Position numbers and translations under genes: made by a program. Below, piece by piece: positions 28,127 through 63,994 of a stretch of DNA of 64,000 bases. The notes under the pieces were generated by a model, which was not told the origin of the DNA, did not search any database, and saw only the letters and a list, made by a program, of their open reading frames with translations. This DNA comes from Escherichia phage IrisVonRoten: sequence record MZ501075, one strand, 5' to 3'. How positions within the stretch are numbered: position 1 is the first letter of the stretch; every line of letters begins with the position of its first letter.

Positions 28127-28608
28127 TATTTAATTAAGTCCTCAACAGATGCATTATGTAGCCACGGCTCAAATAAACCGATTACGATTTCCATGCCTTT
28201 CTTATTTAACACCATATGGGTACGACTCATTAAGTTGTCAACCATCGGGTCTGAGCTATCCAAAGCTATTAACCACTGTCCTCTGTCTTTTTTGAATATT
28301 AATGCAGGTTTGGAGTTCATCTGCTCACCTTCACGTGAGCACTGCTGCCACCACTTCTCTAGAGTGGATTCACCAACATTAAATAAATTACTTGATATAT
28401 TATCATCTTTATACCACTTAACTTCGAAGCAGTATTTACTAATGTGTCCGCTTTGTGGGGGAAGGTAGATATCACCCTTTAGTCCATGACTCTGACCAAA
28501 AGCACCAGAGCCTGGAACACGTTCCCACTCAAGACCTGTACGTTCACGTAGTATATCTCTTACCTGATACTCACCACGTTTGCCTTTCTCTCTACTATCT
28601 ACGGCCAT
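28126..28608 (-). CDS. putative Holliday-junction resolvase, Hjc/PD-(D/E)xK-like
   Basis: 160 aa; KGKRGEYQVRDILRERTGLEWERVPGSGAFG..KGDIYL..CFEVKWYKD fits Hjc-type G-x-ER..SG..D-I..EVK pattern. Confidence 0.45.
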   Translation of the reverse strand: MAVDSREKGKRGEYQVRDILRERTGLEWERVPGSGAFGQSHGLKGDIYLPPQSGHISKYCFEVKWYKDDNISSNLFNVGESTLEKWWQQCSREGEQMNSKPALIFKKDRGQWLIALDSSDPMVDNLMSRTHMVLNKKGMEIVIGLFEPWLHNASVEDLIK

Positions 28609-28612
28609 GTTT

Positions 28613-30451
28613 TTATTCTAAGTAGGAAAATCCTTCTGCATCTTTTTTGACAGTAATCTTATGGGCTAATGGATGCGTATGCCCATGTGAAACAATGATA
28701 GAGTTAAGACTATCTTCCTTGTTTAACAATTCAACTAGAGTATCAAGTCCTTTCGTATCGATAAAGCTAATTACTTCATCAAGGAATAGAAGATTAATAT
28801 TAACTTTACTAATAGATGTTAACAGCATACGAATCGCTAACAATGTTGCTAGATTGATTCGACTTTGCTGACCAGTAGAGCAGTTCTCCATACTGGTACG
28901 ATTCCCATCATTGAAGATTACTACTTGTAATTTTGTTTCATCAAGTTCAAATCCAAGTGCGAATTTACCGCCAGTCATAATAGAAAGATATTTATTAATT
29001 AGCTCTTCAAATACTTTCACACTATGCTCTAGTTTATACCCCACCAGATTTTTCAATGCAGCAATTAGAATATCGAGATCAGCAACAGCTTCTGATACTT
29101 CATCCAGTTTGGAAGTAATTTCAGTCATTTCTGCTTCTGCTTTCTCAATCTGTTCTAGCTTTGCTTTATATTTTGCATTGGCTAATTCGACATTTGCATT
29201 ATGCTCTTTGGCAATTGCAACCTTAGAACGGCCATCAGCGATTTCCTGTTCTAATTGTCGGATTTGCACCTGTAGGATTTGCACATTGAGTTCTTCAAAA
29301 GAAGCATCACCCATTGAATTTTTGAACTCGTCTCTAGCTACCACCGCTTTATCCAAAGCATCCTTTGCTCTAGTATACACAACGTACTCAAGTTGTTCTT
29401 TCTTCAACTGTTCTAGCTTAGCTTCAAGAGATTGCTTCTCTTTGAACAGAGGATCATATTCTATTCTAGCCATATCCATTGCTTTTTGAGCAGCAGTTGT
29501 ATCCAGGTGAGTACCACAAGTAGGGCATTCAGTGTTTGAAGCCTCTTGCTTGAACTTCTGATAACGTTTCTTGACTTCACCTGCACGTGAGGTCACAATC
29601 GTTAGGTCACGCGTAACACTTGAGATCTCTTCATTTTGGTCGGTGGGCGCGGGAAGATTTTTATATGATTCGAAAGATTGTTCGGCAACTTGTACAGCTT
29701 TGTCCAAATTACGCAACTTAGTAATATTAGCCTCTTGAGACTTGGCTAATGCCGCCTTAATTTTCGATTCAGTAAGTTCTTGTGCTAATGGTTCTTCATC
29801 AAACTCCGGTACTTCTACAGGTTCCTGCAAAGTTCCTAGATTATTTCTTCCATTAAGGATTTTTGTAATTACAGCCATTTGGCCCTGCAAATTATTTAAG
29901 GTATTTGCTATTTCTTTACGGTCAGCCTTAATAGTTTCCGACATTTCTTTGTATTGTTCTTGATTGAACAAATTAACAAGAAAAGCCTTACGTGTTGCAT
30001 CCGTTGCTTTTAGAAAATCTAGGTTGGAACCCACTGATTGATAAATCAGTTTGGTGAATGTTTGAAAGTCACCACCCATAATCTCTTCAATCATCTTATA
30101 TGTTTGGGTTGCTGTATGCCCACTAATATCTTCGCCATTCTTAATGAGTGTAACTTTAGCAGTTGATTTAACTACTTTATGCAGCTCATACTCATCATCA
30201 TCTTTCGAGAAATAAGCGTGCATATCATACTCTTTCTTAGGGGCATTCCAAGAGAACAATGCATCCTTTTTAATACCGCGAGAATTTTTATTATAGAATA
30301 GCTCTTCTATAACCGTGGCGATAGTGGATTTCCCTAGTCCATTGCCACCAATTAGTTGAGTAACTGGATTCTTATCGAAATGAATTACGATGTCCTTACC
30401 GTAAGACATAACGTTACTAAATTTTAGTGTCTTAATTGTAATCTTTGACAT
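28613..30451 (-). CDS. SbcC/Rad50-like recombination ATPase (T5 D13-like)
   Basis: Walker A GGNGLGKST near N-terminus, long coiled-coil middle, C-terminal signature/Walker B region (LLFLDEVISFID); likely ATG at 30451 (track ORF extends to 30553). Confidence 0.75.
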   Translation of the reverse strand: MSKITIKTLKFSNVMSYGKDIVIHFDKNPVTQLIGGNGLGKSTIATVIEELFYNKNSRGIKKDALFSWNAPKKEYDMHAYFSKDDDEYELHKVVKSTAKVTLIKNGEDISGHTATQTYKMIEEIMGGDFQTFTKLIYQSVGSNLDFLKATDATRKAFLVNLFNQEQYKEMSETIKADRKEIANTLNNLQGQMAVITKILNGRNNLGTLQEPVEVPEFDEEPLAQELTESKIKAALAKSQEANITKLRNLDKAVQVAEQSFESYKNLPAPTDQNEEISSVTRDLTIVTSRAGEVKKRYQKFKQEASNTECPTCGTHLDTTAAQKAMDMARIEYDPLFKEKQSLEAKLEQLKKEQLEYVVYTRAKDALDKAVVARDEFKNSMGDASFEELNVQILQVQIRQLEQEIADGRSKVAIAKEHNANVELANAKYKAKLEQIEKAEAEMTEITSKLDEVSEAVADLDILIAALKNLVGYKLEHSVKVFEELINKYLSIMTGGKFALGFELDETKLQVVIFNDGNRTSMENCSTGQQSRINLATLLAIRMLLTSISKVNINLLFLDEVISFIDTKGLDTLVELLNKEDSLNSIIVSHGHTHPLAHKITVKKDAEGFSYLE

Positions 30452-31409
30452 ATTTCGCAGCTCTAGCCAAGATTCTATCAATGTCGCCTTGAGATAGCTT
30501 CTCGACTTCACGGAAGTAAAGTTCAAGTTCGCCCAACATATCAAGATCAACAAGATTTAACTTAGCATCTTTAGTAACTCGATGGTTAATCTTCTTATCT
30601 AGTAAATCAGAGTCTTTAATAGACTTTAATTGAACAACGTCACCAGTAACTTCGTAGACTACACGATCATAATCACTAGGTTCCATCTCTTCACCTGCTC
30701 CGATTGTTTTACGAATCAGTTGTGGTAAATCACCTAGTTCAATCCATTCTACTTTTAATGTGTTGGTATCAATGATAAAGCAACCATTTGTACCTTTTGT
30801 GCGTTCTCTATGGAACGATGTAGTTAATGGAGACCCTGGGTAGAGGAGTCTAGTAGGTCCGATAGTTTGGCTATTAGTATAAGAATGTAAATCACCAGCA
30901 ATTACAGTATCATAACAGTTGTACTTAGTTAGATCAATTTCTGGTTTTACATGTGGAGGGATTTCACCACGAATATGCGTGAAACATAGTTTTGATTCAG
31001 CAGGTTTCCACTTGGGTTTATGAATCTCATCATACGGAACAATATCAAATTCAGGGGAACGATATGGTTTGGTAATTACTTCCCACTTCCCACTAGTTAC
31101 TTTATTAATAACTCCCGCATAATGGTACAGACATGAAATGGTTTTAGTTAACATTTCATGATTTCCAGTAAAGATTTTGCCTGGATGGTCAAGTCTTGAC
31201 ATGAACTGTTCAAGCAGTTCTATTTCTTCTGACGACGGGTCGGCAACATCAAGTATATCACCACCAGCAATATGAAGATCACAGTTATGATTATGGAATA
31301 TATCATTTAACCGTTCTCCTAGCATCAGGAAGCGACGCTTCTGCCATTCCTTTGGAACTTTATCTTGTCCTAGTTTGATATGATGATCAGCACTAAATAA
31401 TATTCTCAT
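30432..31409 (-). CDS. SbcD/Mre11-like nuclease (T5 D12-like)
   Basis: 325 aa; calcineurin-like phosphoesterase motifs MRILFSADHH, GDILD, GNHE. Confidence 0.75.
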   Translation of the reverse strand: MRILFSADHHIKLGQDKVPKEWQKRRFLMLGERLNDIFHNHNCDLHIAGGDILDVADPSSEEIELLEQFMSRLDHPGKIFTGNHEMLTKTISCLYHYAGVINKVTSGKWEVITKPYRSPEFDIVPYDEIHKPKWKPAESKLCFTHIRGEIPPHVKPEIDLTKYNCYDTVIAGDLHSYTNSQTIGPTRLLYPGSPLTTSFHRERTKGTNGCFIIDTNTLKVEWIELGDLPQLIRKTIGAGEEMEPSDYDRVVYEVTGDVVQLKSIKDSDLLDKKINHRVTKDAKLNLVDLDMLGELELYFREVEKLSQGDIDRILARAAKYVKDYN

Positions 31410-31415
31410 TGGTTA

Positions 31416-31442
31416 AAAAGAAAGGGGCCGAAGCCCCTCTAT
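31416..31442 (-). terminator. rho-independent terminator (minus strand)
   Basis: minus-sense AGGGGC-TTCG-GCCCCT followed by TTCTTTTT. Confidence 0.6.
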
Positions 31443-31445
31443 TTA

Positions 31446-32219
31446 TTAGTCATCCAGATCGCTTGCAGCTTCGTGGTCAATACCTTTCTGGGAACCAGCA
31501 TTGCTGTTACCAGATTTGGCATCATCATCTTTATTCTCACGACCTTCCATGAAGGCTTGAATTGCTTCTTTCTGCTCTTCATAGGTAGGAACCGGATAGG
31601 TTTGTTCCAGAGAAGGAACTTTCTCAAACTTAATGATGTCGCCATCTTCATCACACATAGCTTCACCAATCAGATCTACATCCGCAGCATATTGCTTAGA
31701 TTCTGCACTGTTAGGATCTTGTAGCTTAATCTGGAACTGCATAGCAGCAATCTGCTGTACATCATACTCAGTATCGAAACCTTTGCCTTTTTTCTCGATA
31801 GAAATATCAATATCAAACGGAGTTGCCAGGTTCAACTGCTTCATGATAGACTGGATGCCTTTCAGAATAGTAGCTTTGACTTCCATTACTTTCAGTTTGT
31901 TATCGGAACGGTCGATAACAAAAGCGATATAGTTTTTCTTCGGTTTCAGCGGAACACGATTGCCATCTTTATCCAGCTCTTTCTCAAAGAAGCCCATCTC
32001 ATGAACCGGATCAGCTTTACCACGAACAAAGCTCTCTTTGTCGCGGTTAAAACGGAGACATTCGAAAGGAGCTACGCTACCTTCTTTATTAGTCAGCCAA
32101 TAGACATAACGTGGAAGAACACCAGAAACGATACGAACACGAGTGATACCGTTGTTGAACTTCAGGAATTCGATTTTATCGTTAGAACCGCCAGTAGTTT
32201 CGCCCCAAGACTTAGCCAT
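31446..32219 (-). CDS. hypothetical protein with acidic C-terminal tail (possible ssDNA-binding/recombination accessory protein)
   Basis: 257 aa; optimal codon bias suggesting high expression; C-terminus rich in D/E (..EAASDLDD); adjacent to SbcCD-like genes. Confidence 0.3.
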   Translation of the reverse strand: MAKSWGETTGGSNDKIEFLKFNNGITRVRIVSGVLPRYVYWLTNKEGSVAPFECLRFNRDKESFVRGKADPVHEMGFFEKELDKDGNRVPLKPKKNYIAFVIDRSDNKLKVMEVKATILKGIQSIMKQLNLATPFDIDISIEKKGKGFDTEYDVQQIAAMQFQIKLQDPNSAESKQYAADVDLIGEAMCDEDGDIIKFEKVPSLEQTYPVPTYEEQKEAIQAFMEGRENKDDDAKSGNSNAGSQKGIDHEAASDLDD

Positions 32220-32496
32220 ATTTTATTTCCTCTTTAAAGATTAATTTCGATTTGTTAATTGCGATTAGTGGGTTAGTGTCGATTACTAAACGTGGTATCC
32301 ATACTGGAACATATTGTATGTCCAAACTAGGATCGTTTGTAAACTTGTATTCGGCATAATTTCGTAGACTTAAAATTCCTAGATATTCTGCCAGTTGTCT
32401 ATTAGACAATTTATTTGGATTATCAACTATTGTTGATTCATTCAAAATGAATGAGGAACCGACCAATAATTGGTGAGCATCAGGCTCTGTAAGCAT
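32212..32496 (-). CDS. hypothetical protein
   Basis: 94-aa ORF; weak RBS. Confidence 0.25.
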   Translation of the reverse strand: MLTEPDAHQLLVGSSFILNESTIVDNPNKLSNRQLAEYLGILSLRNYAEYKFTNDPSLDIQYVPVWIPRLVIDTNPLIAINKSKLIFKEEIKYG

Positions 32497-32603
32497 TCTT
32501 TTGAATAACTTAATAATTAGGTCGGAATTTCCTCTAGCTAGTAAGTATAGCTTTTCATAATCGAAGAATTTAATTTTTGTTTTCTCCTCGAATTTATGTA
32601 TAT

Positions 32604-32633
32604 ATTATACTAGATTTCGAGAGAATTTAGCAA
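32604..32633 (-). promoter_or_regulatory. T5 early-type promoter (copy 1 of tandem pair)
   Basis: minus-sense TTGCTA-N18-TATAAT followed by ATATACATAAATTCGAGGAGAAA. Confidence 0.5.
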
Positions 32634-32704
32634 CTAAAATTTTTATTTTTCTGCTTCGGACTTTCTTATCAATCCGAAACTTTCTCTCTCAAATTTATGT
32701 ATAT

Positions 32705-32733
32705 ATTATACATCATTTATAAGCTGTTGCCAA
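32705..32733 (-). promoter_or_regulatory. T5 early-type promoter (copy 2 of tandem pair)
   Basis: minus-sense TTGGCA-N17-TATAAT followed by ATATACATAAATTTGAGAGAGAAAG; overlaps 3' end of helicase gene. Confidence 0.4.
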
Positions 32734-34069
32734 ATGCAATTTTAGCTAATTGAACTGCTTTCTCCGGAGTCATAGTAATAGTTTTCCATCCGTTGTTACG
32801 ATATACTGCCATACGTCCAGAAGCCTGTCTTAGTCCAGTGCCACCTTTCATAATTAGATCTACAACAATAGGGTCGAGTTTACCCTCGACAATACGTTGA
32901 ACACGGCCTGCAAGCTGTTCAATGAGAGATTCATTATTAATGAGGCTTCCCATTATTAAACAAGATAGCTCATTAAGGGAAATACCTTCAGAGAAGATAC
33001 TTTGAGCTGCTGCAAGTACACAAGGGGCACCTTTTGCTATATCTTTCTGAATTTTTAACCGATCATCAAGTGGGGTTGCGCCAATAATCTCATAGGTTGT
33101 GACGCCTCGCTGAGATAGTGCTTCTAGTACTGTTTGGATTAACTCTGTTCTATCACTTACAATGAGTACTTTATGTCCCATATTCACATATAAATGTGCT
33201 AGGTTTATAATAGTCTCTCGATATTCAGGATGATTATACACATCGTTAGCACGTAATGCCCACGGTACGTTTTGGTTTCCTGATAGCTCAACAGGCACGG
33301 AGTACCTATGGATTGTAGGTGCAACAGTATTATTAACCGGCGGGCTAAATATCTTATATCCAAAGAAATCTTTGAACATAACTTGCAAGCCATCCTTCCG
33401 TTTTAATGTTCCAGATAGTCCGATCTTATAGCGAGCACAGGATATTTCTAGGAAGTTAGTGAAAGTTGTAGCTACACAATGGTGAACTTCATCAACTATA
33501 ACAGTACCGAATACTTTAGAAAGATTATTCGCATGTTTATTCACTGTTTGAATATTACTGACTACAATTGGTGGATCAATATTATATTTCCCAGAACCTA
33601 TGATACCTGGTTCAAACCCAAACCATTTACGAACTTCTGCCGCCCACATTTCACGAATAGATGTGTTGGTACAAATTACCAAAGTTTTTTGGCCAAATTT
33701 ATACGCAAGTGCAAGGGCTAGGATAGTTTTACCAAATCCAGGCTTACCATTAATAATACAGGTATCATCGCATTCTTCGTATATTGGGAGCTGATCTTCT
33801 TCACGCAGTTTGAACTTAGGTTTTGGTATATCTACAGGAGCTAATGTGCGTTTATCGACTAATTCGTATTTTACTCCTTTAGCATCTAGTAAATCCAGAC
33901 GCGTGATAGGAATCCACTTAATCTCTTTAGCAACAACACCACTATTCTTATACATAATAGGGTATTTACTAGTCATTGTCTCAATGTGATAAGTGGTTTG
34001 CTTACTACAATAATCCCAAAGTTCATCATCGGGCTTGAAATAGGCTTTATTAGATATAACAACCTTCAT
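32717..34069 (-). CDS. SF2 DNA helicase (T5 D10-like)
   Basis: 450 aa (same as T5 D10 as recalled); Walker A GKPGFGKT, DEVHH box, C-terminal helicase domain. Confidence 0.75.
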   Translation of the reverse strand: MKVVISNKAYFKPDDELWDYCSKQTTYHIETMTSKYPIMYKNSGVVAKEIKWIPITRLDLLDAKGVKYELVDKRTLAPVDIPKPKFKLREEDQLPIYEECDDTCIINGKPGFGKTILALALAYKFGQKTLVICTNTSIREMWAAEVRKWFGFEPGIIGSGKYNIDPPIVVSNIQTVNKHANNLSKVFGTVIVDEVHHCVATTFTNFLEISCARYKIGLSGTLKRKDGLQVMFKDFFGYKIFSPPVNNTVAPTIHRYSVPVELSGNQNVPWALRANDVYNHPEYRETIINLAHLYVNMGHKVLIVSDRTELIQTVLEALSQRGVTTYEIIGATPLDDRLKIQKDIAKGAPCVLAAAQSIFSEGISLNELSCLIMGSLINNESLIEQLAGRVQRIVEGKLDPIVVDLIMKGGTGLRQASGRMAVYRNNGWKTITMTPEKAVQLAKIAFGNSL

Positions 34070-34563
34070 AATTTTATTCTAAGTCTAGGAATTTCAGGCT
34101 CCTCTTGATGGACTTGATAAATAACAGGGCTATTATTTATCAGGATATAGCTTATATAAGCTGGAACGTAGGATAATACAAATGGATAAGGGACTTTAGC
34201 CACATAGCATTGGTATTTTCCATTATAAATTCTAGCTGAATGCAAAACTTTAGAGGTGACAACATCATAGAACGTAGTTTTCTTCCAATTAATAAGATTT
34301 CCATCAGAATCTATAAATTGGTTACGCTTTGACCCAACTAATTGAGACAACATTGATATTCTACCCCTAATAGGATAGAGCTTATAGGGTAATTCTTTCC
34401 GTTTCTCAAATAGAATAAGCCTACGTTGAGAAAACGTGCCAGGCAACTTCCTGTTATCTAGCACATATTTATTATATCTTGTTGTAATTACGGAATAATC
34501 ACCTTCTTGCTCAATTGATACAAACGCCCGTAACGCATAGACGGGCAATTTGAAATTAAGCAC
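34066..34563 (-). CDS. hypothetical protein
   Basis: 165-aa ORF, AT-rich codon usage, overlaps neighbours by a few nt. Confidence 0.3.
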   Translation of the reverse strand: MLNFKLPVYALRAFVSIEQEGDYSVITTRYNKYVLDNRKLPGTFSQRRLILFEKRKELPYKLYPIRGRISMLSQLVGSKRNQFIDSDGNLINWKKTTFYDVVTSKVLHSARIYNGKYQCYVAKVPYPFVLSYVPAYISYILINNSPVIYQVHQEEPEIPRLRIKL

Positions 34564-37123
34564 CGAGAATCCTTTTCACGTTATCCAGATCTTTACATAC
34601 AGCAATAAACTTATCATCCTTGTACTTGCTGTGGTCTGGATGCTCTTTATCCATCGCAGCTAATTTCTTATACTCGAAATCTGCATCAAGTAGCATTTCT
34701 TTAACGTAACGAGTATATTCGTCATCATCAATACAAGCGATTGATGGGTGCTGTTTCTTCATCTTACCACAAGAATAGTCACGAGAACCTCCAGCTTCAG
34801 AATCTGAATCAATACCAATCGGACAGCCAGGAATACTGATACCACGGTCTTTCTGAATATTACGAATCAGGATTTCATTGTATTGGTCGATCAAATCCTC
34901 ACGAACAATAGCAACTACGGAGTCATGAACCAGCATAACAATCTTCATCTCTTGTTCTAAACCAAGAGAAATGATTTCATTATCTGCATCTACAGCACCT
35001 AAAAGGAGACTATCAGAAGAAGCAGACTGAATGATTGCGTTAAATCCAGAACGAATTTCTTCACCCTGAACGCCACGGTCCTCGGAGTGGATATTATGTA
35101 GACGACGTTTGCGACCAAAGTGACTATAGATAAATCCATGATTCTTGATCTGATCGTGGCACTTATCAATCCAACGCTTAAGCTGTGGGAATTGACTAAA
35201 GTAAGTCTCAATGTACTCTTTAGCATCTGCAACAGTACATTCAACAAACGGTTCACCAGTTTTGGCTGCTTGTTCGAGCAATGCTTCGTTAACAGAATGT
35301 GCTACTTTAGCCGGGCCAGAACCATACAAAATACCAAAGGTAATTGCCTTAGCTGCCTGACGTAGAGCTGGGAACAGCTTCTTAACATCACGAGGTTCAC
35401 ATTGCAATTTAAATACCATGTGGGCGATGTTAGAGTGGAAGTCAGGGTATTTATCAGGTTCATTTCTCATGTTGATAAATACTTGTTGCATATTTCTATC
35501 ACCAGATAGAACAGCAGCATAATAAACTTCCGCAGTTGTTAAGTCCCATGCGATTACACGGTATCCAGGTGGTGCAACTACACAACCCTTAATGATAGAT
35601 TCATCACGGGGTAACTGTTGCAGGTTCAGTTTACCAGAAGAACTCAGACGACCAGAAGTAGTCATGTGTTCGTGGAAACCAGTACGAATGCAACCATCAG
35701 CATCAATGCTCAGAAGAATCTTCTCAACGTAAGTAGAGATCAGCTTAGTCAGCTTACGAATCTCTAGTAGAGTCTTAGCAATTGGATGCTGTGTAGACAA
35801 TTCGTTCAGAGCTTCTGCGTCTGTAGAGTCTGCTCCAGTATCCGTCAATTTACCCGTTGGAGTTAAGCCAACATAATCAAACAGAAGAACACGGAGTTGT
35901 TTAACAGAGTTTGGGTTAAACGCTTCGTTCTGATCTTTCTCTAGCTGAACGACTTCTGGATAAGTATACAGCTTTTCACGAGCTTTATTCAGATTATGGG
36001 TTAACTGGTACTGAGCTTCTTTTAAACGATCAATAGAAATAGGTACACCACGATCCTCAACACGCTGGAGAAATACACAACCAGGCATTAGGACATCATA
36101 ATACAGACTGCAAAGTTTTTCATTCTTCTCAATTTTTGGTAAGAAGAAGTTGTGCAAACGTATGGTGGCATCGGTATCTTTTGCAGCGTAAGGCCACATA
36201 ATATCAAACGGAATTAAATCATAGGTGAAATCTTCTTTCTTGATTTTATGTGCTTTGCAGTAATCATCTTTGAACTTATCTAGTTCAAAGTCATAGTCAC
36301 CCATATCTGTATACTTCATTGCTAGAGATTTCAAGCCATGAGTACCACGACGCTCATCTAGAACATAATGCTGCAACATTGTATCATGGAGTCTGCGTTC
36401 TTTATGTGCTTTATCAAAAGTAAGTCCCAGATGGTACTTATAAAAGTGCATATCAAACTTCAAGTTGTGAAAAACAATAGTGTGGTTTTCACTATCCAGA
36501 ATTTTCTGGAGATAATATACTGCAACCTCTGTGAGACAATCAGAATCGATATATACACCCTGATACTCTTGGTGAGATATAGAAACACCAAGCAGATAAC
36601 CATCTCGACAGTATAGTGCTGAGGTTTCGGAGTCGAATGCGACAGGTCCGATAACCATATTATACACCATCTTGATATATTCTTCTGCCTCATCAGGGTC
36701 AGTAATAGGGCGGTAATCACCAGCTTTTGCAATCTTCTCACGACCATTGATAATATCGTGGATATTCTCTACTGTTGCATCAAAAACTGGTTTCATTTCA
36801 GGTTTAAAGTGTAACTGGGCTGGGCTGATACTCGCAATCCAGTTAGCATATCCATTATACTCTACACGTTTACCGGTATAATCACCAATACCTTTCTTAC
36901 CTGCAAAGTACAAGAAAGGTTCGGCACCTACCAGTATAACAAAATCATAGTCACTCGGGTCAAATGGGTTTTCCGGAGTCCCGATAGTAATATGCTTTTT
37001 GAGCAAACGACCGGACAACTTCTCGTTACACATATGGAATACATCAACTTCCTCGCCGTATAGCTGGAAATGTTTATCATAACGAGTGTTGTTTAGAGCT
37101 TTATCAACTACTGCGATTTTCAA
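34556..37123 (-). CDS. DNA polymerase, family A (T5 DNA polymerase-like)
   Basis: 855 aa (same as T5 polymerase as recalled); 3'-5' exonuclease and PolA palm motifs; TTG start preceded by AAGAGGAGA RBS. Confidence 0.9.
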   Translation of the reverse strand: MKIAVVDKALNNTRYDKHFQLYGEEVDVFHMCNEKLSGRLLKKHITIGTPENPFDPSDYDFVILVGAEPFLYFAGKKGIGDYTGKRVEYNGYANWIASISPAQLHFKPEMKPVFDATVENIHDIINGREKIAKAGDYRPITDPDEAEEYIKMVYNMVIGPVAFDSETSALYCRDGYLLGVSISHQEYQGVYIDSDCLTEVAVYYLQKILDSENHTIVFHNLKFDMHFYKYHLGLTFDKAHKERRLHDTMLQHYVLDERRGTHGLKSLAMKYTDMGDYDFELDKFKDDYCKAHKIKKEDFTYDLIPFDIMWPYAAKDTDATIRLHNFFLPKIEKNEKLCSLYYDVLMPGCVFLQRVEDRGVPISIDRLKEAQYQLTHNLNKAREKLYTYPEVVQLEKDQNEAFNPNSVKQLRVLLFDYVGLTPTGKLTDTGADSTDAEALNELSTQHPIAKTLLEIRKLTKLISTYVEKILLSIDADGCIRTGFHEHMTTSGRLSSSGKLNLQQLPRDESIIKGCVVAPPGYRVIAWDLTTAEVYYAAVLSGDRNMQQVFINMRNEPDKYPDFHSNIAHMVFKLQCEPRDVKKLFPALRQAAKAITFGILYGSGPAKVAHSVNEALLEQAAKTGEPFVECTVADAKEYIETYFSQFPQLKRWIDKCHDQIKNHGFIYSHFGRKRRLHNIHSEDRGVQGEEIRSGFNAIIQSASSDSLLLGAVDADNEIISLGLEQEMKIVMLVHDSVVAIVREDLIDQYNEILIRNIQKDRGISIPGCPIGIDSDSEAGGSRDYSCGKMKKQHPSIACIDDDEYTRYVKEMLLDADFEYKKLAAMDKEHPDHSKYKDDKFIAVCKDLDNVKRILGA

Positions 37124-37184
37124 ATTTAATCTCCTCTTGGTAAGTAAGTATAACTTCAGTGTTTCTTCTCTAACTTACCAATAT

Positions 37185-37214
37185 ATTATACCAAATCTTT
37201 AAGCGATTCAGCAA
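37185..37214 (-). promoter_or_regulatory. T5 early-type promoter upstream of DNA polymerase gene
   Basis: minus-sense TTGCTG-N18-TATAAT, overlapping 3' end of primase gene. Confidence 0.45.
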
Positions 37215-38076
37215 CTAAAATTTCAATACGTTTTGCTAACATATCAATCTCTTCTTTATTTAAGTCCCCAGGGTCTTTACCTTCAGGCAGAAGAAAGTTA
37301 GCAACTACAGGTGTTAAACGCGTTTTTGTACGAATTAGCTTGGCCAGTGCTTGTGCAGCTTTATTACCAGAAGCATCATTATCTAGTAAGATAACAACAA
37401 CTTTTACACCGGCAATAATATAAGGACTGAACTTATCTGCAATGTTATCTGAAGTAAACTGATGTGTACCAAAGCAGCAGGAAGCATAGTCTATACCATT
37501 ATCCTCTAGGTTCAGCATATCAAAGATACCTTCAACTAGAATAAGAACTGGAGTATTATATCGTACAGGAAAAATTGGTGGTGAAACTTGTTTTGGTTTT
37601 ACTAAGTATTTAGGAGGGGCAGAACTGTTTATAGAACGACCCAAAAATAGGATATTGCGTCCAACAGCATCTGTGATTGGGAATACAATTCTGCCTTCCC
37701 AGTCTGCTTGGTGTTGGAAAGCAAAATATTTCTTCAAGGTCTTAGAACTTATACCCCGGAAATCACCTTCGAAAAGGTAAGCAGATTCAGGGATTGCAAG
37801 ATTCGTTGATCCATTCCTAATCTCTGAAATCTTTTTACGTACTTGCGATAGCCTTGGGGACTGTCGGTACTGAGTCTCATTAAAATAATGGTAAATGCTC
37901 GGTATACCTTTACCGAAGCCACAACTCAAGCAGTGCATAATACCTGTTTCAGGGTCAATACGCAAACTTGGGTGTTTATCGTCATGATCTGGATTGAGAC
38001 AACAGATGAGGATGTCCCCACCTGTGTCCTTATATTCAATGCCTTTCAGATCAAGTAGTTCTGTTATTCTACTCAT
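37186..38076 (-). CDS. DNA primase (zinc-finger + TOPRIM)
   Basis: 296 aa; N-terminal CCLNPDHDDKHPS..CLSCG zinc finger; TOPRIM-like VEGIFD and DNDASG motifs. Confidence 0.7.
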   Translation of the reverse strand: MSRITELLDLKGIEYKDTGGDILICCLNPDHDDKHPSLRIDPETGIMHCLSCGFGKGIPSIYHYFNETQYRQSPRLSQVRKKISEIRNGSTNLAIPESAYLFEGDFRGISSKTLKKYFAFQHQADWEGRIVFPITDAVGRNILFLGRSINSSAPPKYLVKPKQVSPPIFPVRYNTPVLILVEGIFDMLNLEDNGIDYASCCFGTHQFTSDNIADKFSPYIIAGVKVVVILLDNDASGNKAAQALAKLIRTKTRLTPVVANFLLPEGKDPGDLNKEEIDMLAKRIEILVAESLKDLV

Positions 38077-39596
38077 ATATCGCTGGCCTGTTCACCTGTT
38101 GAATTTTCAGCTTTGTCTTTCTTAGCACGTTTAGATTGAGCCGGCTTATCCTTCTCAATAGGGATAACGAACTCAGCTTCCATTTGAGATATATCTTCCA
38201 TTGCTAGGTTGGTAGTGTTATCCATCCGCAGGGTTTCCCAGTTCATTTTAGGCATAAACTTCACGCTATCAGAAGAACGGGTCTTAACGAAGTCAAACAT
38301 AATAGCACCTTGACCATTATCAGCTTTTGCAGCATTAAGATTAGCAGCCATGTCTGCGGAATCAAGAATCCCCTTTGACATACGTGTTCTACCATCTTGA
38401 TCAATCTGGTAAGGAGCTACACCAGCCACGTTATGCTTCTGGCAGATGGATTTGAAAGACGAGCTAACAACCATCTGTTCTTTCCAGTCGTACATATCAA
38501 TGGTTTTAGAATCTGGAAGTCGGGTTTGGTTAATATAGTCAAGTAAAGCTACTGTAACTTTATCCCCATATCTAGCAACTAATTTATTTAATTCTACGTC
38601 AACTGTTGTAATAGACAGCTCAGGGTCATAAACAATAATCATAGGAGTATGTAGTTCATACCCTTCTATTAGCTTACTTTCCATATCGTAGAAATCACTC
38701 ATCTTAGCCATTGTGTACTGTTTAACGAAGTTATCGAAAAGCTCTTCACCACCGTTAAACATCCTAGCTCTAGTTCTGGCTAATCTCAACAGAGCTGCAC
38801 CTTCTAGAGTATTATTACGCATTGCTAGTGCTGATACACCAGCTAACATGGCTAGATTACGTCTAAATACTTCATGTTCTTTCATCTCAATTGAGAAGTA
38901 TGGAGCAATATCCCCATTCAAATATTGCTGAACCTGTATGTTTGAACAGATAATGGATTTACCAGTACCACGCCAACCACCAAGCAGTAACGTTTCTGTG
39001 CGAGCTAAACCAATTTGAGCGTCGAACTCATTACAAATACCAAGAGCGATTAAGTTCAGTTTGGTATCTTCTTCTCTCTGGAAAATACGCATGTTATCTG
39101 CGTTGAATACTTTTCCAGTATTCGTTACTTTCTCTTCTAATTTTAAGTGAAGGGAGGCAACTCGGTTAAGAATTTCTCCCTGATCCAGCATTGTTAAATC
39201 TTGAAGCACGTCTGTTTCTAGAAGCTTCAGGAATAAATCCTGTGTATACTCGGCCTCTAGGACTTCAAGTGCCTGTTCCATGCTAACTTCTGGAATTTGA
39301 GTGTTAGCTAAAACGACTAGAGCTTGAGAAAGGCGGGCGTTCCTATTAGCCTCAAGCATCAGTGCGTCAATGGACGGCATTGTGTTATATTTTTTATAAT
39401 AATTCTGGACGGCTTGGTAAATTGAGGAGAAAGCGTCACTAAAATGATCTTTATGCAGTTTTGAGAATGTTTCCAATGCTATTTGCTTCTGTTCGGAAGC
39501 TAGAAGCATCTTCAACACTACAGCTTGCACGTTAAACAAGGTCATTCTCCTTTGCACGCTTTCGTGCCTTCTAAATGCAAAAAGGGGAAGGAGCAT
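38073..39596 (-). CDS. replicative DNA helicase, DnaB-like
   Basis: Walker A GGWRGTGKS, RecA-like C-terminal domain; start uncertain (alternative ATG at 39545). Confidence 0.65.
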   Translation of the reverse strand: MLLPLFAFRRHESVQRRMTLFNVQAVVLKMLLASEQKQIALETFSKLHKDHFSDAFSSIYQAVQNYYKKYNTMPSIDALMLEANRNARLSQALVVLANTQIPEVSMEQALEVLEAEYTQDLFLKLLETDVLQDLTMLDQGEILNRVASLHLKLEEKVTNTGKVFNADNMRIFQREEDTKLNLIALGICNEFDAQIGLARTETLLLGGWRGTGKSIICSNIQVQQYLNGDIAPYFSIEMKEHEVFRRNLAMLAGVSALAMRNNTLEGAALLRLARTRARMFNGGEELFDNFVKQYTMAKMSDFYDMESKLIEGYELHTPMIIVYDPELSITTVDVELNKLVARYGDKVTVALLDYINQTRLPDSKTIDMYDWKEQMVVSSSFKSICQKHNVAGVAPYQIDQDGRTRMSKGILDSADMAANLNAAKADNGQGAIMFDFVKTRSSDSVKFMPKMNWETLRMDNTTNLAMEDISQMEAEFVIPIEKDKPAQSKRAKKDKAENSTGEQASDI

Positions 39597-39612
39597 AGCC
39601 CCCTCCCCTTAG
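39580..39612 (-). terminator. putative terminator (minus strand) after D5-like gene
   Basis: minus-sense AAGGGGAGG..CCTTCCCCTT imperfect hairpin followed by TTTTTG. Confidence 0.4.
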
Positions 39613-39627
39613 GTTTAATTTACCAGA

Positions 39628-40395
39628 TTATTCAGCAGCCGCAGCTTTTGCATCCAGTTTAGCACGCTTAGCGGCACCATCATAGTCCTTAGCAACCAGA
39701 CCACGACGAGACAGCATAGATTTAACACCGCGCTCAGACTTACCAGTTTTCTCAGCGATCTCAGCAACAGTCATGTTAGCCAGATCCAGACCTTCTAAAA
39801 GATCTTCACGAGTTTTAGCACTTGAAGTTTCCTGTACCGGCATAGCAGCGATACGACCTTCACGAAGCAGACTCAGAGCTTTACCACGGATCTGCTTGAT
39901 ATTACGACCGAAGTGAGCAGCGATAGCTTCAATAGTAGCTCCAGCAACAACCTGATTAACAAAGTCAGTTTCTTCATCCGGAGTGAAGGAACGAACAGCA
40001 GCAGCTTTTTCGGTCGGCTTAACAGATGCGGTCATTTCCAGACTCAAGATTTTACCCTGTACCTGCTTAGCACCGAACTGACCACCAGCTACAGCAGCAG
40101 CGATTTCAGCATAAGTATACTGACCAGCATGAGCGTTCAGGAAATCAACCAGTTCAGCTTCCTGCTCAGGAGTCCATGGGGATTTCTGTACTTCGTTAGC
40201 TTTCTGTACTTCGAAACCTTCTTTACGCAGCTTAGAGCCAACAGAGCGAGCGGTAACGTCTTTGCCAGTTTCAGCAGCCAGTTCAGCAGCGATAGCAGCT
40301 ACTTGTTCTTGAGAGATTACAGCAACACCCAGAGCAGTGGCTTTTGCTTTCAGAGACTCGGTTACACCTTCTACGTTCCAGTTCAGTTTAGACAT
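39628..40395 (-). CDS. DNA-binding protein with three HTH-like repeats (T5 D5-like)
   Basis: 255 aa; three repeats of pattern E-IAxxxG..........LxxxGL; strongly optimal codon usage. Confidence 0.45.
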   Translation of the reverse strand: MSKLNWNVEGVTESLKAKATALGVAVISQEQVAAIAAELAAETGKDVTARSVGSKLRKEGFEVQKANEVQKSPWTPEQEAELVDFLNAHAGQYTYAEIAAAVAGGQFGAKQVQGKILSLEMTASVKPTEKAAAVRSFTPDEETDFVNQVVAGATIEAIAAHFGRNIKQIRGKALSLLREGRIAAMPVQETSSAKTREDLLEGLDLANMTVAEIAEKTGKSERGVKSMLSRRGLVAKDYDGAAKRAKLDAKAAAAE

Positions 40396-41167
40396 TATTA
40401 TTTTTCTCCAATAGTTCTTTAATCGACAGGATTTCTATCCCATTCGTTTCGGCTTTCTTATAAGATGAGGAAGAACGCTTCGATTCATCCTCACAGATTA
40501 GGTATTTGACGTCTTTGGTAACGGATTTCTTAACCGTATATCCTAGACCTTCTAAATAGTTTGTTGCATCCGTTCTATTTGCAAAATCTTGCAAAGATCC
40601 GGTAATACATACCGTTATTCCGTTTGGTTGGGCTACTAGACCATCAGTGATGATGACCTCAGCTTTAGCACCTTTAATACCAGTTGTGAATTTCCACGGT
40701 AATTCGATAACATCCTTGCCTTGTGGGGAATTTAGCCAGGCTTTATAATTTTCTCCAGCTCTGCCATCAGCTCTCACATCTTGAAAACTGGTGCAATTTT
40801 GGGACAATTTCTTTGCTGCAACCTCTCCGATTAGAGGGATTCCTAAAGAACCGAGAACTGAACCAAAGTCAATGTCTCCGCGAACTTTATTATTTAATTC
40901 GCTAATTAACTTAGCGGCAACCTTGCTACCCACGACTCTAACCAAATCTTCTTCGGTTAGGTAAAATAGTTCTGAAATCTTCGTCAGCTCCAGCTTCTCA
41001 ATAGTTTTTGGGCCAAAGCCCTTTAACTTCATTTTTGTACAGAAGTTCTCAATTAACTTACTTGATTGCGCTGGACAGTTGGACTTATTACGACAGAATA
41101 ATTGTCCGTTGACAAGATCTAGTTTAGAACCACAAGAGGGACATTGTGTTGGAATTTCGATTTTCAT
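40388..41167 (-). CDS. NAD-dependent DNA ligase, C-terminal subunit (Zn-finger/HhH/BRCT part)
   Basis: ~259 aa from ATG 41167; CPSCGSKL..C zinc finger, helix-hairpin-helix segments, C-terminal BRCT-like region. Confidence 0.7.
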   Translation of the reverse strand: MKIEIPTQCPSCGSKLDLVNGQLFCRNKSNCPAQSSKLIENFCTKMKLKGFGPKTIEKLELTKISELFYLTEEDLVRVVGSKVAAKLISELNNKVRGDIDFGSVLGSLGIPLIGEVAAKKLSQNCTSFQDVRADGRAGENYKAWLNSPQGKDVIELPWKFTTGIKGAKAEVIITDGLVAQPNGITVCITGSLQDFANRTDATNYLEGLGYTVKKSVTKDVKYLICEDESKRSSSSYKKAETNGIEILSIKELLEKNNNV

Positions 41168-41197
41168 CAAATTTCTTCCTTATCAATTTATATAAAT

Positions 41198-41226
41198 ATT
41201 ATAGCAAGTATTTAAGCATTTAGCAA
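41198..41226 (-). promoter_or_regulatory. T5 early-type promoter inside the ligase split
   Basis: minus-sense TTGCTA-N17-TATAAT followed by RBS AAGGAAG and the C-terminal ligase subunit start. Confidence 0.5.
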
Positions 41227-41369
41227 CTACAATTTTAACTAACTTTGCTTACCCTCGCCATAACTTTCTATCCCTCAACTGAATGATAATAGTATATACC
41301 TAAGCGGCGAAAATGTCAATAACCACTTTATAATTCCGATATGGTAGATGGGTAGCAAAGGGTTGTGTA

Positions 41370-42344
41370 TTAATCGTATACTCGCTCTACTATGCACGGG
41401 ATTACACCACCAGCACGAATCACTCGAATCTGGCAACCGATCTCTAGATCAAGAGAGTTAATATAATCAACGTTATTAAGAGTCGCTTTAACAATTGTAG
41501 CATCATCAATAATTACCGGTTCGAAATAACCAACTGGAGTTACTTTACCAGAAGCCCCTACCTGCCATTCAACTTTAGTAAGAGTTGTAATCTCGCCTTC
41601 TTCATCCTCTTTAATAGCGAATGCTCCACGAGGGAATTTATTAGTCCAGCCTTCGCGGAAGAATTTGTTGTTGTCATTAATACGAACAACTTTACCGTCC
41701 GTTGGAATCCATTTAAAGAAGGAACGCACATTAACAACTGTTAAGAAGTTCTCATTCTCTAGCCAAAGCATATCTTTTAAATATGCTTCTGTAATACCCA
41801 CAGATTCAGCAGAACATTGGATACCATAAGCAACAAAGATTAAACCACCTTCCCCAATACGTTGTACGAAATCATCGCTATCTTTGAGGTTAATAGCACC
41901 AGAGGCAAAGTTACGTTTATTTTCTACTTCTTTTGTAATTAGAACTTCACCAGTGATTTGAGTAGGTACTTTTTGGGAAATCTTTTTAGGAATGTTCAGC
42001 AATCTTACGTTGCTTGTGACATCATTCCCCAGAATACCATTACCACGAGTTAGTGCTTGAACAAATTCACCGTTAATATATAACAGAGAAATTGCACAAC
42101 CATCTAACTTATCGGTTTCCACCTGACCTAAAGGATTGAAGGGTGGTTTATCACCACGGTTATAGTAAACTTTCTGTAAAGAATACATACGATATAGATG
42201 TGGAATATCACCCTTAGGCCCGATCTCTTCCTCTAACGGGAAGCGTTTTACCAGGCAATCATACTCCTCATCAGAGATTAAAGACATGCCTTGATAATAT
42301 GCTTCTTGACAACGCTTAATAAAGCCTTTTACATTATTCATCAT
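41370..42344 (-). CDS. NAD-dependent DNA ligase, N-terminal adenylation subunit
   Basis: 324 aa; adenylation motif TDKLDGCAISL (KxDG), OB-fold region; ends with stop 199 bp upstream of the C-terminal subunit start. Confidence 0.7.
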   Translation of the reverse strand: MMNNVKGFIKRCQEAYYQGMSLISDEEYDCLVKRFPLEEEIGPKGDIPHLYRMYSLQKVYYNRGDKPPFNPLGQVETDKLDGCAISLLYINGEFVQALTRGNGILGNDVTSNVRLLNIPKKISQKVPTQITGEVLITKEVENKRNFASGAINLKDSDDFVQRIGEGGLIFVAYGIQCSAESVGITEAYLKDMLWLENENFLTVVNVRSFFKWIPTDGKVVRINDNNKFFREGWTNKFPRGAFAIKEDEEGEITTLTKVEWQVGASGKVTPVGYFEPVIIDDATIVKATLNNVDYINSLDLEIGCQIRVIRAGGVIPCIVERVYD

Positions 42345-61359: not shown

Positions 61360-61644
61360 ATGCGAATTTATAACTCAAATTCATTAGGATTTAAACCGTT
61401 GAGAAAACGTGCACAATCACCTCGTCAAATAAGAAAGGCTAATATTGGTGAGCCAGAAACACGTCTTCCACCTCCTCCAGAACAACGTTTAGTTTATCTG
61501 GATGAAGAATTAGCTGAACGCGAAGGAAAAGCTCAAGAAGAGATTGAGCGTAAGAAAATGTGTACTGCTCCAGCCTACTCCAAAGGGGCTTATCAGTATA
61601 TCTATACAGCCGAAGAGGCTAAAGATGCGGGGCGTAAAAAATGA
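61360..61644 (+). CDS. hypothetical protein (basic, Pro-rich centre)
   Basis: 94-aa ORF with RBS GAGGAGGG. Confidence 0.3.
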   Translation: MRIYNSNSLGFKPLRKRAQSPRQIRKANIGEPETRLPPPPEQRLVYLDEELAEREGKAQEEIERKKMCTAPAYSKGAYQYIYTAEEAKDAGRKK

Positions 61645-62090
61645 AGATTACTGAATTTAAAGGTGCTTATAGTTTCTTATCTAACTTTTATTTATCACCA
61701 ATTACTTTCGAATATCTAAATGAAATATGGCATGCTGATACTGTAGAACATGCTTTTCAGGCTATGAAATCCGACCAAAAAGATGATGTAGCTCATGTAC
61801 TACGCTCCCTAAATGCAGGAGTTGCTAAACGTAGAGGACGTAAATTAACTCTACGCTCTGACTGGGATAAGGTAAAAGATGATGTAATGCTAGAGCTTTT
61901 ACGGTTAAAGTTTGCAATCCCTGATTTGAGAGATAAACTGTTAGCAACAGAAAATGCAACTTTGATTGAAGGAAATACCTGGGGAGATACATATTGGGGT
62001 GTTTGCCGAGGCATCGGGGATAATACTTTAGGAGTTCTTTTGATGCAGGTAAGGTCTGAAATTAAAAGAAGCTTACAGTTAATAAATTAA
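61641..62090 (+). CDS. NADAR/YbiA-family protein (DUF1768-like)
   Basis: 149 aa; FLSNFY, EHAFQAMK, LLATENATLIEGNTWGDTYWG, NTLGVLLMQVR align with YbiA-type motifs. Confidence 0.6.
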   Translation: MKITEFKGAYSFLSNFYLSPITFEYLNEIWHADTVEHAFQAMKSDQKDDVAHVLRSLNAGVAKRRGRKLTLRSDWDKVKDDVMLELLRLKFAIPDLRDKLLATENATLIEGNTWGDTYWGVCRGIGDNTLGVLLMQVRSEIKRSLQLIN

Positions 62091-62098
62091 AAATTCAT

Positions 62099-62127
62099 TT
62101 GCTAAACGCTTCAAATTCTCGTATAAT
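62099..62127 (+). promoter_or_regulatory. T5 early-type promoter
   Basis: TTGCTA-N17-TATAAT followed by leader ATAAATTGATAAACAA and RBS AAGGAAA. Confidence 0.55.
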
Positions 62128-62165: not shown

Positions 62166-62681
62166 ATGGCTAAGCAGAAAAACGCAAAAACTCAAGCAGC
62201 TACTACAGTTAAAACTTTCCCGCAGACTGAGGCTAACCGCAAAGCTCGTCTGGAACGCCATCTGCGCAAGCACCCTACTGATGCTCAAGCTGCACAGGCA
62301 CTGAATCGTCCGGCTCCGATTCGTCAAAAGCCGAAGGCTAAGAATGCTACTCGTTCTGTAGCCCGCCTTGTGACCTATGTACAGGGTTATGGCCACAAAT
62401 CTGTTCCAGTAACACTGAGTTTCAATGCTGGAGCTGAATTGTTCTCTCGTAATGGCATGGCCATGAAAGATTATGAGAAAGCAGTTAACCAGAAGCGTAA
62501 ACCAACGGCAGATGTACTGCGTGATACTCGCGGACAGTTCGGTTCTGTTAAACCAAATATCTTTGGTGTAGAATATAGCAAAGATAACGTTCGTGCTCTG
62601 TGTTATGGTGTGGGGATTAAATTCACAGGCGATTCTGCTCGTAAATCTGCTAAACCAGCTCGCAAGCGTAAAGCGAAGTAA
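62166..62681 (+). CDS. highly basic hypothetical protein, likely highly expressed
   Basis: 171 aa; Lys/Arg-rich N- and C-termini; strongly optimal codon usage (CGT, CTG, GCT); bracketed by GGGGCGAAAGCCCC-type hairpins. Confidence 0.4.
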   Translation: MAKQKNAKTQAATTVKTFPQTEANRKARLERHLRKHPTDAQAAQALNRPAPIRQKPKAKNATRSVARLVTYVQGYGHKSVPVTLSFNAGAELFSRNGMAMKDYEKAVNQKRKPTADVLRDTRGQFGSVKPNIFGVEYSKDNVRALCYGVGIKFTGDSARKSAKPARKRKAK

Positions 62682-62740
62682 TAGATAGGGGCGAAAGCCC
62701 CTACAGTCAACTAATTCTCTAACCAATCCAGGATATTTTT

Positions 62741-62956
62741 ATGTTCTCTAAGAAACCACGTTCCGTTACTGAAATCGTTGCTTCCTTTACTACTATTACT
62801 GATGAACTTCAAGCTCGTATTGAGGCTGATCAGAAAATTGCTGCTGATATTCAGAAACAGCAGGAAGAACTCGCTCTGAAGTTGGCTGAAACCAACAAGA
62901 GCGAAAAATCTGCCCAAACTATTATGGAAAATATCCTTAAACTGCTTGGCAAGTAA
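62741..62956 (+). CDS. small coiled-coil protein
   Basis: 71-aa ORF, helical heptad-like composition; followed by hairpin. Confidence 0.3.
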   Translation: MFSKKPRSVTEIVASFTTITDELQARIEADQKIAADIQKQQEELALKLAETNKSEKSAQTIMENILKLLGK

Positions 62957-62964
62957 TTTAAATC

Positions 62965-62990
62965 AGGGGGCGAAAGCCCCTCTTATTTGG
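62965..62990 (+). terminator. putative terminator hairpin
   Basis: GGGGC-GAAA-GCCCC followed by TCTTATTT; near-identical stem also at 62686-62703. Confidence 0.45.
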
Positions 62991-62997
62991 AGAAATT

Positions 62998-63234
62998 ATG
63001 CGTAATTTTGTAGCAAAGAATGATTTTAACCGTGCTAGCACTCATAAGTCCGCTAGAGATTATACACGACTTTCTAGTCATGAGGTAATGGATACCTGTT
63101 ATGAAGAGCTGGAAGGTAGTTGGAATGAATGGCCTGACTTCTCTATGGAAGAGAACTGGGATGTCAGTGAGGATATGCTTCCTGGTTTCAAAGACCCCAA
63201 GAAGTGGGAGTCTATTAAAGAGACAGCTCTTTAA
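62998..63234 (+). CDS. small acidic hypothetical protein
   Basis: 78-aa ORF rich in E/D/W. Confidence 0.3.
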   Translation: MRNFVAKNDFNRASTHKSARDYTRLSSHEVMDTCYEELEGSWNEWPDFSMEENWDVSEDMLPGFKDPKKWESIKETAL

Positions 63235-63262
63235 TAGTTTTCTACACAATAAAGGATAAGTT

Positions 63263-63964
63263 ATGAAAGTAAAACCATTTGGTATGCTAGATATTGAATC
63301 TCTAGGAACTCCAGGAGATTGTGGTACTACTCATATCGCAATGCCTTCTTTCGCTTTTGTGGCTATGCACGGAATTGATAAAGACCCTGATCTAGTGTTT
63401 GTTACTTTGGATGTACAAGATCAGCTTAACTCTGGAGCTAAAGTTACGGCATCTACTCTAGCATTCTGGATGGATCAAGCTAAGAATAGCCCATCAGCTC
63501 TACATATTATGGAAGCTATGAAGGAATGCAATCCAAAGCTGATTGCTTTTCAAGATGGTAAACATCACTGTACTAATAAGCTAGGCTCTAACTATGCAGC
63601 TTATTCTATGGCTAAAAACATTATGGAGTTGGCTCTAGGTGAGAATGCTTTGTATTATGGCAATGGCCCAGAGTTTGATATGACTATCTACTCTGCAAAC
63701 ACTTTCCATGCTGGAACCAATGAAGAAATAGTTCCGTGGAAATTCTGGAACTTAGGCAATGTTCGATCTCTCCGCAATCTCTGGATGCAGGCTGGTTATA
63801 GTTACAAAGACCTAGAAGCAGAGGGAATTAGCTGGGCAAAAGCTAAGATGGAGAAGATGGACACTATTCGTTATGGGATCTATCCGGTTAAGCATGATCC
63901 AGCATTCGATGCCTTAGTTGAGAGCTATTGTGTTGCAGCTATGGTCGAAAAAATCAAAATTTGA
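63263..63964 (+). CDS. putative DEDDh-type 3'-5' exonuclease (DnaQ-like fold)
   Basis: 233 aa; N-terminal FGMLDIESLG (D-x-E) and C-terminal HDPAFDALVESY (H-x4-D) resemble Exo I and Exo III motifs. Confidence 0.4.
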   Translation: MKVKPFGMLDIESLGTPGDCGTTHIAMPSFAFVAMHGIDKDPDLVFVTLDVQDQLNSGAKVTASTLAFWMDQAKNSPSALHIMEAMKECNPKLIAFQDGKHHCTNKLGSNYAAYSMAKNIMELALGENALYYGNGPEFDMTIYSANTFHAGTNEEIVPWKFWNLGNVRSLRNLWMQAGYSYKDLEAEGISWAKAKMEKMDTIRYGIYPVKHDPAFDALVESYCVAAMVEKIKI

Positions 63965-63965
63965 T

Positions 63966-63994
63966 TTGCTTCCAGCTTCAAAATTCTGTATAAT
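63966..63994 (+). promoter_or_regulatory. T5 early-type promoter at window end
   Basis: TTGCTT-N17-TATAAT. Confidence 0.5.

Follow-up and report, generated by a model that had tools for sequence, protein, structure and literature searches.

The ORF that closes a plus-strand gene block in the T5-like Escherichia phage IrisVonRoten encodes a DEDDh 3'–5' exonuclease of the DexA/Rv2179c family, as shown by its fold, its complete catalytic pentad and its family placement. We consider it reasonably probable that this enzyme, predicted to be catalytically competent, is the T5-group counterpart of T4 DexA and trims the 3' ends of single-stranded DNA (ssDNA). The family is a known one, of which the gene is an uncharacterised member; 'exonuclease' is already its name in the RefSeq T5 genome and in PHROGs. 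What is new here is modest: (i) the correction of a widespread misannotation; (ii) a DUF7230 partner, either split from or fused to the exonuclease, with a near-invariant peptide; and (iii) a conserved intercistronic hairpin. The window analysed (record MZ501075) is 64,000 nucleotides long; its relevant features are listed in the table.

Table. Features of the exonuclease gene and its surroundings, with positions in the 64-kb window.
Feature	Position	Strand	Evidence or remark
Sigma-70-like promoter TTGCTA, 17-nt spacer, TATAAT	62099..62127	+	promoter scan, 10/12 positions match
DUF7022 protein, 171 aa, T5.089 orthologue, first gene of three-gene block	62166..62681	+	PF22887, E 5e-77
GC-rich GNRA hairpin and T-rich tail resembling a terminator, 17 nt upstream of the 78-aa gene	62965..62981	+	terminator scan
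78-aa gene, T5.088 orthologue, DUF7230/PHROG 4586	62998..63234	+	
18-bp RNA hairpin over the stop codon of the 78-aa gene, ending just before the exonuclease Shine-Dalgarno sequence	63204..63245	+	
Shine-Dalgarno sequence AAAGGA, 6 nt before the exonuclease ATG	63251..63256	+	read from sequence; invariant in five phages
CDS, 233 aa, DexA/Rv2179c-family DEDDh 3'-5' exonuclease, T5.087 orthologue	63263..63964	+	
ExoI motif D10-I-E12, metal-binding carboxylates	63290..63298	+	invariant in alignment A1; aligns with DexA D7/E9
ExoII aspartate D139	63677..63679	+	invariant in alignment A1; aligns with DexA D119
W162 in KFWN motif, equivalent of DexA W152	63746..63748	+	invariant in alignment A1; aligned with W152
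ExoIII motif H211-D-P-A-F-D216, general base His and metal-binding Asp	63893..63910	+	H211 and D216 invariant; align with DexA H186/D191
TTGCTT, 17-nt spacer, TATAAT	63966-63994	+	starts 2 nt past the exonuclease stop; -35 hexamer 3/6 matches

The ORF is intact, and its ends are exactly those given in an earlier sequence-only reading, which had proposed a stand-alone DnaQ-fold DEDDh 3'–5' exonuclease from a D-x-E and an H-x4-D motif. These two motifs alone are weak evidence, as similarly placed ones turn up in about 0.35% of shuffled sequences. Proper alignment strengthens the case: across 27 homologous sequences with identities down to 35% (alignment A1), the catalytic acidic residues D10, E12, D139 and D216 and the histidine H211 are all invariant, and the pentad is also kept in representatives more distant than these 27. 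The aspartate D139 sits in an invariant segment, G133-N-G-P-x-F-D139 (NGPEFD in the ORF), and the ExoIII motif has the H-x4-D form, with a histidine rather than a tyrosine, which defines the DEDDh subtype. No further copies of the MRNFVAKNDFNR motif were found elsewhere in the 64-kb window.

An AlphaFold2 model of the ORF built on the same alignment (pLDDT 90.9, pTM 0.90) has an RNase H-like alpha/beta fold, in which a predicted strand near the N-terminus (residues 6–12) carries D10-I-E12. The top Foldseek match of this model is RNase T (E 1e-4), and the closest solved structure is T4 DexA. Among predicted viral structures, the model matches T5-like "metallopeptidases", followed by exodeoxyribonuclease, DexA, DnaQ-like exonuclease and Rv2179c-like proteins.

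Family profiles agree with this placement. The ORF matches Pfam PF16473, the Rv2179c-like 3'–5' exoribonuclease domain, over residues 8–180 with 34.0 bits (E 3.1e-8), above the gathering cut-off of 27 bits, and most of its homologues also bear a precomputed PF16473 match. It also matches the PHROG 255 'exonuclease' profile (E 6.1e-52, 178 bits). T4 DexA shares both assignments, with E 3.6e-91 for the PHROG and 79.9 bits for the Pfam family. The ORF has no match to the RNase_T model PF00929 at E<=1, none in NCBIfam and none among the PADLOC models for anti-phage defence, including CBASS-associated exonucleases such as Cap18. When the PDB was searched by sequence, the protein and the family profile yielded spurious matches only (i.e. 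designed armadillo repeats at residues 151–177, and PCNA at an E value of about 1), and structural relatives surfaced by fold comparison alone. Searched against 1.8 billion representative proteins, the family profile finds 12 at <1e-30, 34 at <1e-10 and 864 at <1e-3. By these counts, the T5-type exonucleases form a small and divergent subfamily on the margin of a large family. The original enzyme call is thus backed by family profiles, by residue conservation and by a structure predicted with high confidence; the profile and structure searches suggested with it as a check recover PF16473, PHROG 255 and a DnaQ/RNase H-like fold. The exonuclease is also, as had been proposed, not fused to a polymerase: the phage polymerase is encoded separately on the minus strand (34556–37123) and holds its own PF01612 proofreading domain (E 6e-40), so that the ORF represents a second, independent DEDD nuclease.

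Most GenBank records give the gene another name. Hundreds of them carry the label "metallopeptidase" (peptidase M14), and the T5 record adds the note "match to InterPro IPR000834", the entry for the zinc carboxypeptidase family. Residues 149–159 of the ORF (HAGTNEEIVPW) do fit an old-style zinc-carboxypeptidase signature. However, this 11-residue segment is unconserved among homologues, a Pfam search of the ORF at E<=1 gives no peptidase family, its fold is that of a DnaQ/RNase H-like DEDD nuclease, and the T5 orthologue T5.087 (YP_006915.1) is now named "exonuclease" in RefSeq. A peptidase function is effectively refuted by the Pfam searches, the nuclease fold and the unconserved signature, and we give it practically no credence; the label is a propagated error. 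The main value of our analysis is therefore corrective, i.e. the gene should be annotated as a DexA-like DEDDh 3'–5' exonuclease; the findings leave the understanding of phage nucleases unchanged. Hundreds of T5-like phage genomes carry the mislabel, and many of these phages are candidates for use in therapy or in the biocontrol of Salmonella and E. coli. The 78-aa neighbour is also labelled "metallopeptidase", and other small ORFs nearby are mislabelled as "tape-measure" or "tail fiber". The latter name is carried, in the T5 RefSeq genome and many other records, by the second gene downstream of the exonuclease (212 aa; L001 of HildyBeyeler, 7010–7648), which is T5.085 in T5 and has equivalents in falkor (L006, 2752–3210+) and LmqsSP1 (L007, 2774–3234+). 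'Tail fiber protein' on this early-region gene is probably another propagated misannotation.

We then compared the genomic setting and the distribution of the gene. The window belongs to a T5-like phage: a megablast search with a 1.1-kb stretch around the gene matched 433 phage records (best 99.7% identical), mostly Salmonella and Escherichia phages of the genera Tequintavirus and Epseptimavirus, and the rest of the window holds a T5 gene set, with late structural genes and a minus-strand replication block (i.e. family A polymerase, D15 flap endonuclease, SbcCD-like proteins and dUTPase). On the plus strand, the exonuclease ORF closes a block of nrdA, nrdB, frd, thy, rnh and following genes. 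Its orthologue T5.087 lies within the T5 early region, which agrees with the early placement suggested beforehand. A tblastn search with the exonuclease found 580 phage records, 436 of them at 80% identity or above and 144 below 60%; 82 of the latter are Klebsiella phages. Within the collection, essentially every Markadamsvirinae and Klebsiella T5-like genome carries the gene, which is thus nearly universal in enterobacterial T5-like phages. By contrast, the core T5 gene for the flap endonuclease was found in 905 records, including 357 from Vibrio phages, whereas the exonuclease was detected by tblastn in only six Vibrio phage records. As it goes mostly undetected in Vibrio Demerecviridae, the exonuclease is not a universal component of replication.

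The gene directly upstream appears to be its functional companion. The 78-aa protein matches PHROG 4586 (E 1e-39), weakly DUF7230, and also the N-terminal part of the PHROG 255 profile. Across T5-like phages, 527 records hold its gene together with that of the exonuclease. In Tequintavirus and Epseptimavirus, DUF7230 and the exonuclease are separate genes, and five homologue clusters (P0015/17/21/22/23; 324–334 aa) have an N-terminal extension homologous to the 78-aa ORF. In Klebsiella phage Roth49 and in phage Eos, DUF7230 and the exonuclease are annotated as a single fused CDS, and neither translation is interrupted by a stop. The DUF7230 gene also lies directly upstream of the exonuclease in distant metagenomic relatives, two of which (L009 and L010) keep the order DUF7022, DUF7230, exonuclease. 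Fusion in Klebsiella T5-like phages and adjacency elsewhere make the DUF7230 protein a probable partner of the exonuclease, or a tether for it. We also considered whether programmed frameshifting could join the two products in the phage of the window, and rejected this because a TAA in the exonuclease frame (63257–63259) lies directly before the ATG.

Almost no variation is seen in the N-terminal 24 residues of the 78-aa protein (MRNFVAKNDFNRASTHKSxxDYxR), even though the more distant relatives, on shared contigs or in fused forms, have exonucleases only 35–40% identical to that of the window. The middle of the protein is acidic and aromatic, rich in tryptophan, with 11 D+E and no K+R in residues 31–62. 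In an AlphaFold2 model of the fused Klebsiella-type protein, residues 1–85 have pLDDT values of 34–58, i.e. low confidence except for one helix, so that no docking interface can be claimed and a tether or regulator role is conjecture. DUF7230 would probably be a flexible tether or regulator, whose N-terminal peptide would bind a conserved target. A bolder and rather doubtful version is a two-part device in which the near-invariant peptide docks the nuclease on a conserved host or phage target for a dedicated job unseen for DexA. If true, this would make the enzyme a targeted nuclease, e.g. one that matures the phage tRNA cluster or destroys defence-made nucleic acid. Through its peptide, the split or fused partner is a concrete handle for finding what the nuclease acts on. 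PHROGs 5724, 15229, 1359 and 31895 match the N-terminal peptide of DUF7230 only, and the motif may therefore head other phage protein families. The DUF7022 protein, encoded at the start of the three-gene block and always upstream of the DUF7230–exonuclease pair, is very basic (pI 10.9, 38 K+R) and may belong to the same module as a component that binds nucleic acid. In one record it bears the name 'virion structural protein'.

Several signals precede the exonuclease. The promoter upstream of the DUF7022 gene, at the position equivalent to the T5 promoter annotated as P-H 207 upstream of T5.089, is the likely source of the transcripts that reach it. The hairpin between the 78-aa gene and the exonuclease has a folding energy of -19.5 kcal/mol (z -3.68), and 0 of 200 shuffled sequences were as stable. 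T5, HildyBeyeler, LmqsSP1 and the Epseptimavirus falkor share it with 100% identity, whereas the flanking coding sequence diverges; the hairpin may be a processing site, an attenuator or a coupling element. The GNRA hairpin before the 78-aa gene is annotated as a putative terminator in phage HASG4. With the promoter and the hairpins preceding the gene, exonuclease transcripts have to pass several structured elements, including read-through of this terminator-like hairpin. The GGGGCGAAAGCCCC hairpin, of which the GNRA hairpin is one copy, occurs exactly twice in the 64 kb (62688–62701 and 62967–62980, plus strand), where none is expected by chance. The two copies flank a 71-aa ORF (62741–62956) that T5 and HildyBeyeler lack, and the arrangement resembles the insertion of a small cassette with a terminator-like hairpin at either end. 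Its GenBank label, 'tail length tape-measure protein', cannot be right for a 71-aa early-region ORF. Past the exonuclease stop, a T5 promoter is annotated for the next gene, T5.086, at the position equivalent to the second promoter-like sequence of the table, which the promoter scan did not list because of its poorly matching -35 hexamer.

Upstream of the block, at 61641–62090 on the plus strand, lies a gene for a 149-aa NADAR-domain protein (PF08719, E 8e-22), which is shared with HildyBeyeler and absent from T5 at the equivalent position. NADAR enzymes reverse ADP-ribosylation of guanine in DNA, and this gene could therefore be an anti-DarT counter-defence gene.

By analogy with its family, the exonuclease would hold two Mg2+ ions with its four carboxylates, use H211 as general base and release nucleoside 5'-monophosphates singly from the free 3'-OH end of single-stranded nucleic acid. 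A homodimer is probable, in which the invariant W162 would act on the substrate bound by the neighbouring subunit, in the manner of W152 in the DexA dimer (PMC12153337); the KFWN motif around W162 is itself invariant and shared with DexA. The most likely substrates would be ssDNA 3' ends or short oligonucleotides in early phage DNA metabolism. We favour ssDNA 3' ends because DexA, the closest characterised relative, prefers ssDNA and because the neighbours are DNA-precursor and replication genes. Possible jobs include the trimming of 3' tails, both in recombination-dependent replication and in the repair of breaks made by homing endonucleases, and the clearing of oligonucleotides. Homing endonucleases are numerous in T5-like phages, which makes the processing of break ends a plausible role.

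The fold fits DNA and RNA substrates alike, and the name of PF16473 does not fix the substrate either, because its members include the DNA exonuclease DexA. The sequence-only reading had rightly fixed no substrate. The main rival to ssDNA trimming is the 3' trimming of RNA or tRNA, in which the protein would be an exoribonuclease that processes the trailers of phage tRNAs and stable RNAs, as RNase T does, or that takes part in the decay of host or phage transcripts and nanoRNA. We regard this as possible and distinctly less likely than action on ssDNA. RNase T, PH, II and D are already available from the host, which speaks against it. The phage tRNA cluster does lie downstream of the exonuclease in the same direction, RNase T is a close structural neighbour and comes first in Foldseek, and Rv2179c, the founder of PF16473, has been described as an exoribonuclease (PMC10534295), but both the nearest structural match and the common PHROG lead to DexA, a DNA exonuclease, the immediate neighbours are DNA-precursor and replication genes, and the match to RNase_T is lacking. 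In T5, 22 of the 23 tRNA genes called by ARAGORN in the stretch 28000–41700 (L008) encode the 3' CCA. Genes for HNH homing endonucleases and several 'stable RNAs of unknown function' are scattered among these tRNA genes.

The nucleic-acid economy of T5 is unusual in that host DNA is destroyed and the products are excreted, and this is the setting in which a DexA-type enzyme would have to work. Destruction by pre-early functions takes place within minutes, and the products are not reused, unlike in T4 and T7 (bioRxiv 10.64898/2026.04.02.716235; PMC10644984); the pre-early protein A1 is both necessary and sufficient for it (bioRxiv 10.64898/2026.04.02.716235). Host-DNA salvage is therefore unlikely in T5, and the degradation of host DNA becomes the least likely of the roles that the sequence-only reading had listed. 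Scavenging in the manner of T4, i.e. the conversion of host-DNA fragments into mononucleotides for phage DNA synthesis, has a documented precedent in DexA itself (PMC12153337) and would suit a gene close to nrdAB, frd and thy. We nevertheless hold it to be improbable, since the gene lies on the DNA of the second transfer step and is expressed only after host DNA has been destroyed. Slightly more improbable still is a counter-defence nuclease, targeted by DUF7230 against immune products with a free 3' end (e.g. linear oligonucleotide signals, retron msDNA or cDNA of defence reverse transcriptases). The stable synteny in a nucleotide and replication block is unlike that of typical fast-turnover anti-defence loci, the PADLOC models gave no match, and our literature search found no paper naming T5.087, T5p085/086 or YP_006915/6 and nothing linking DexA to Tequintavirus. 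The cleavage of cyclic nucleotide signals, another of the roles listed beforehand, is mechanistically unfavourable because such molecules lack the free 3' end that DEDDh chemistry requires.

The trimming of ssDNA 3' ends thus remains our preferred reading, and comparison with known nucleases places the T5-type enzyme nearest to DexA. Proofreading exonucleases (e.g. the epsilon subunit of Pol III and the PF01612 exonuclease domain of Pol A) are polymerase-associated, whereas the ORF is not. E. coli RNase T and oligoribonuclease/REXO2 are dimeric DEDDh nucleases, from which the ORF differs in having no significant PF00929 profile match; the basic segments with which RNase T binds nucleic acid were not identified in it. 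Rv2179c of Mycobacterium tuberculosis (PDB 4HEC) is bacterial and shorter (155 residues in the solved chain), reportedly acts as an exoribonuclease on the 3' overhangs of dsRNA, and is structurally further from the ORF than DexA is.

T4 DexA (exonuclease A; PDB 8KEL/8KEN) is a dimeric 3'–5' DNA exonuclease with a preference for ssDNA over dsDNA, and it serves in intron homing and in the scavenging of DNA (PMC12153337). The ORF is only ~16% identical to it, and hhalign gives the pair a probability of only 62%. DexA has a gap where the T5-type protein has an extra segment, predicted to form a beta-hairpin around residues 92–106. Conversely, the DexA positions for 5hmC recognition (D169) and for the tetramer (S87/D90) align to gaps or variable segments of the ORF, and no clear equivalents were found there; as T5 DNA is unmodified, discrimination of 5hmC is irrelevant to the T5-type enzyme. 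The DUF7230 partner or fusion is a feature of the T5-type protein: DexA.1, encoded by a small gene that precedes dexA, was weighed as a possible analogue of the 78-aa protein and rejected, as inspection of its sequence revealed no evident similarity. Finally, the two enzymes serve phages with different economies, since T4 recycles host DNA and T5 does not.
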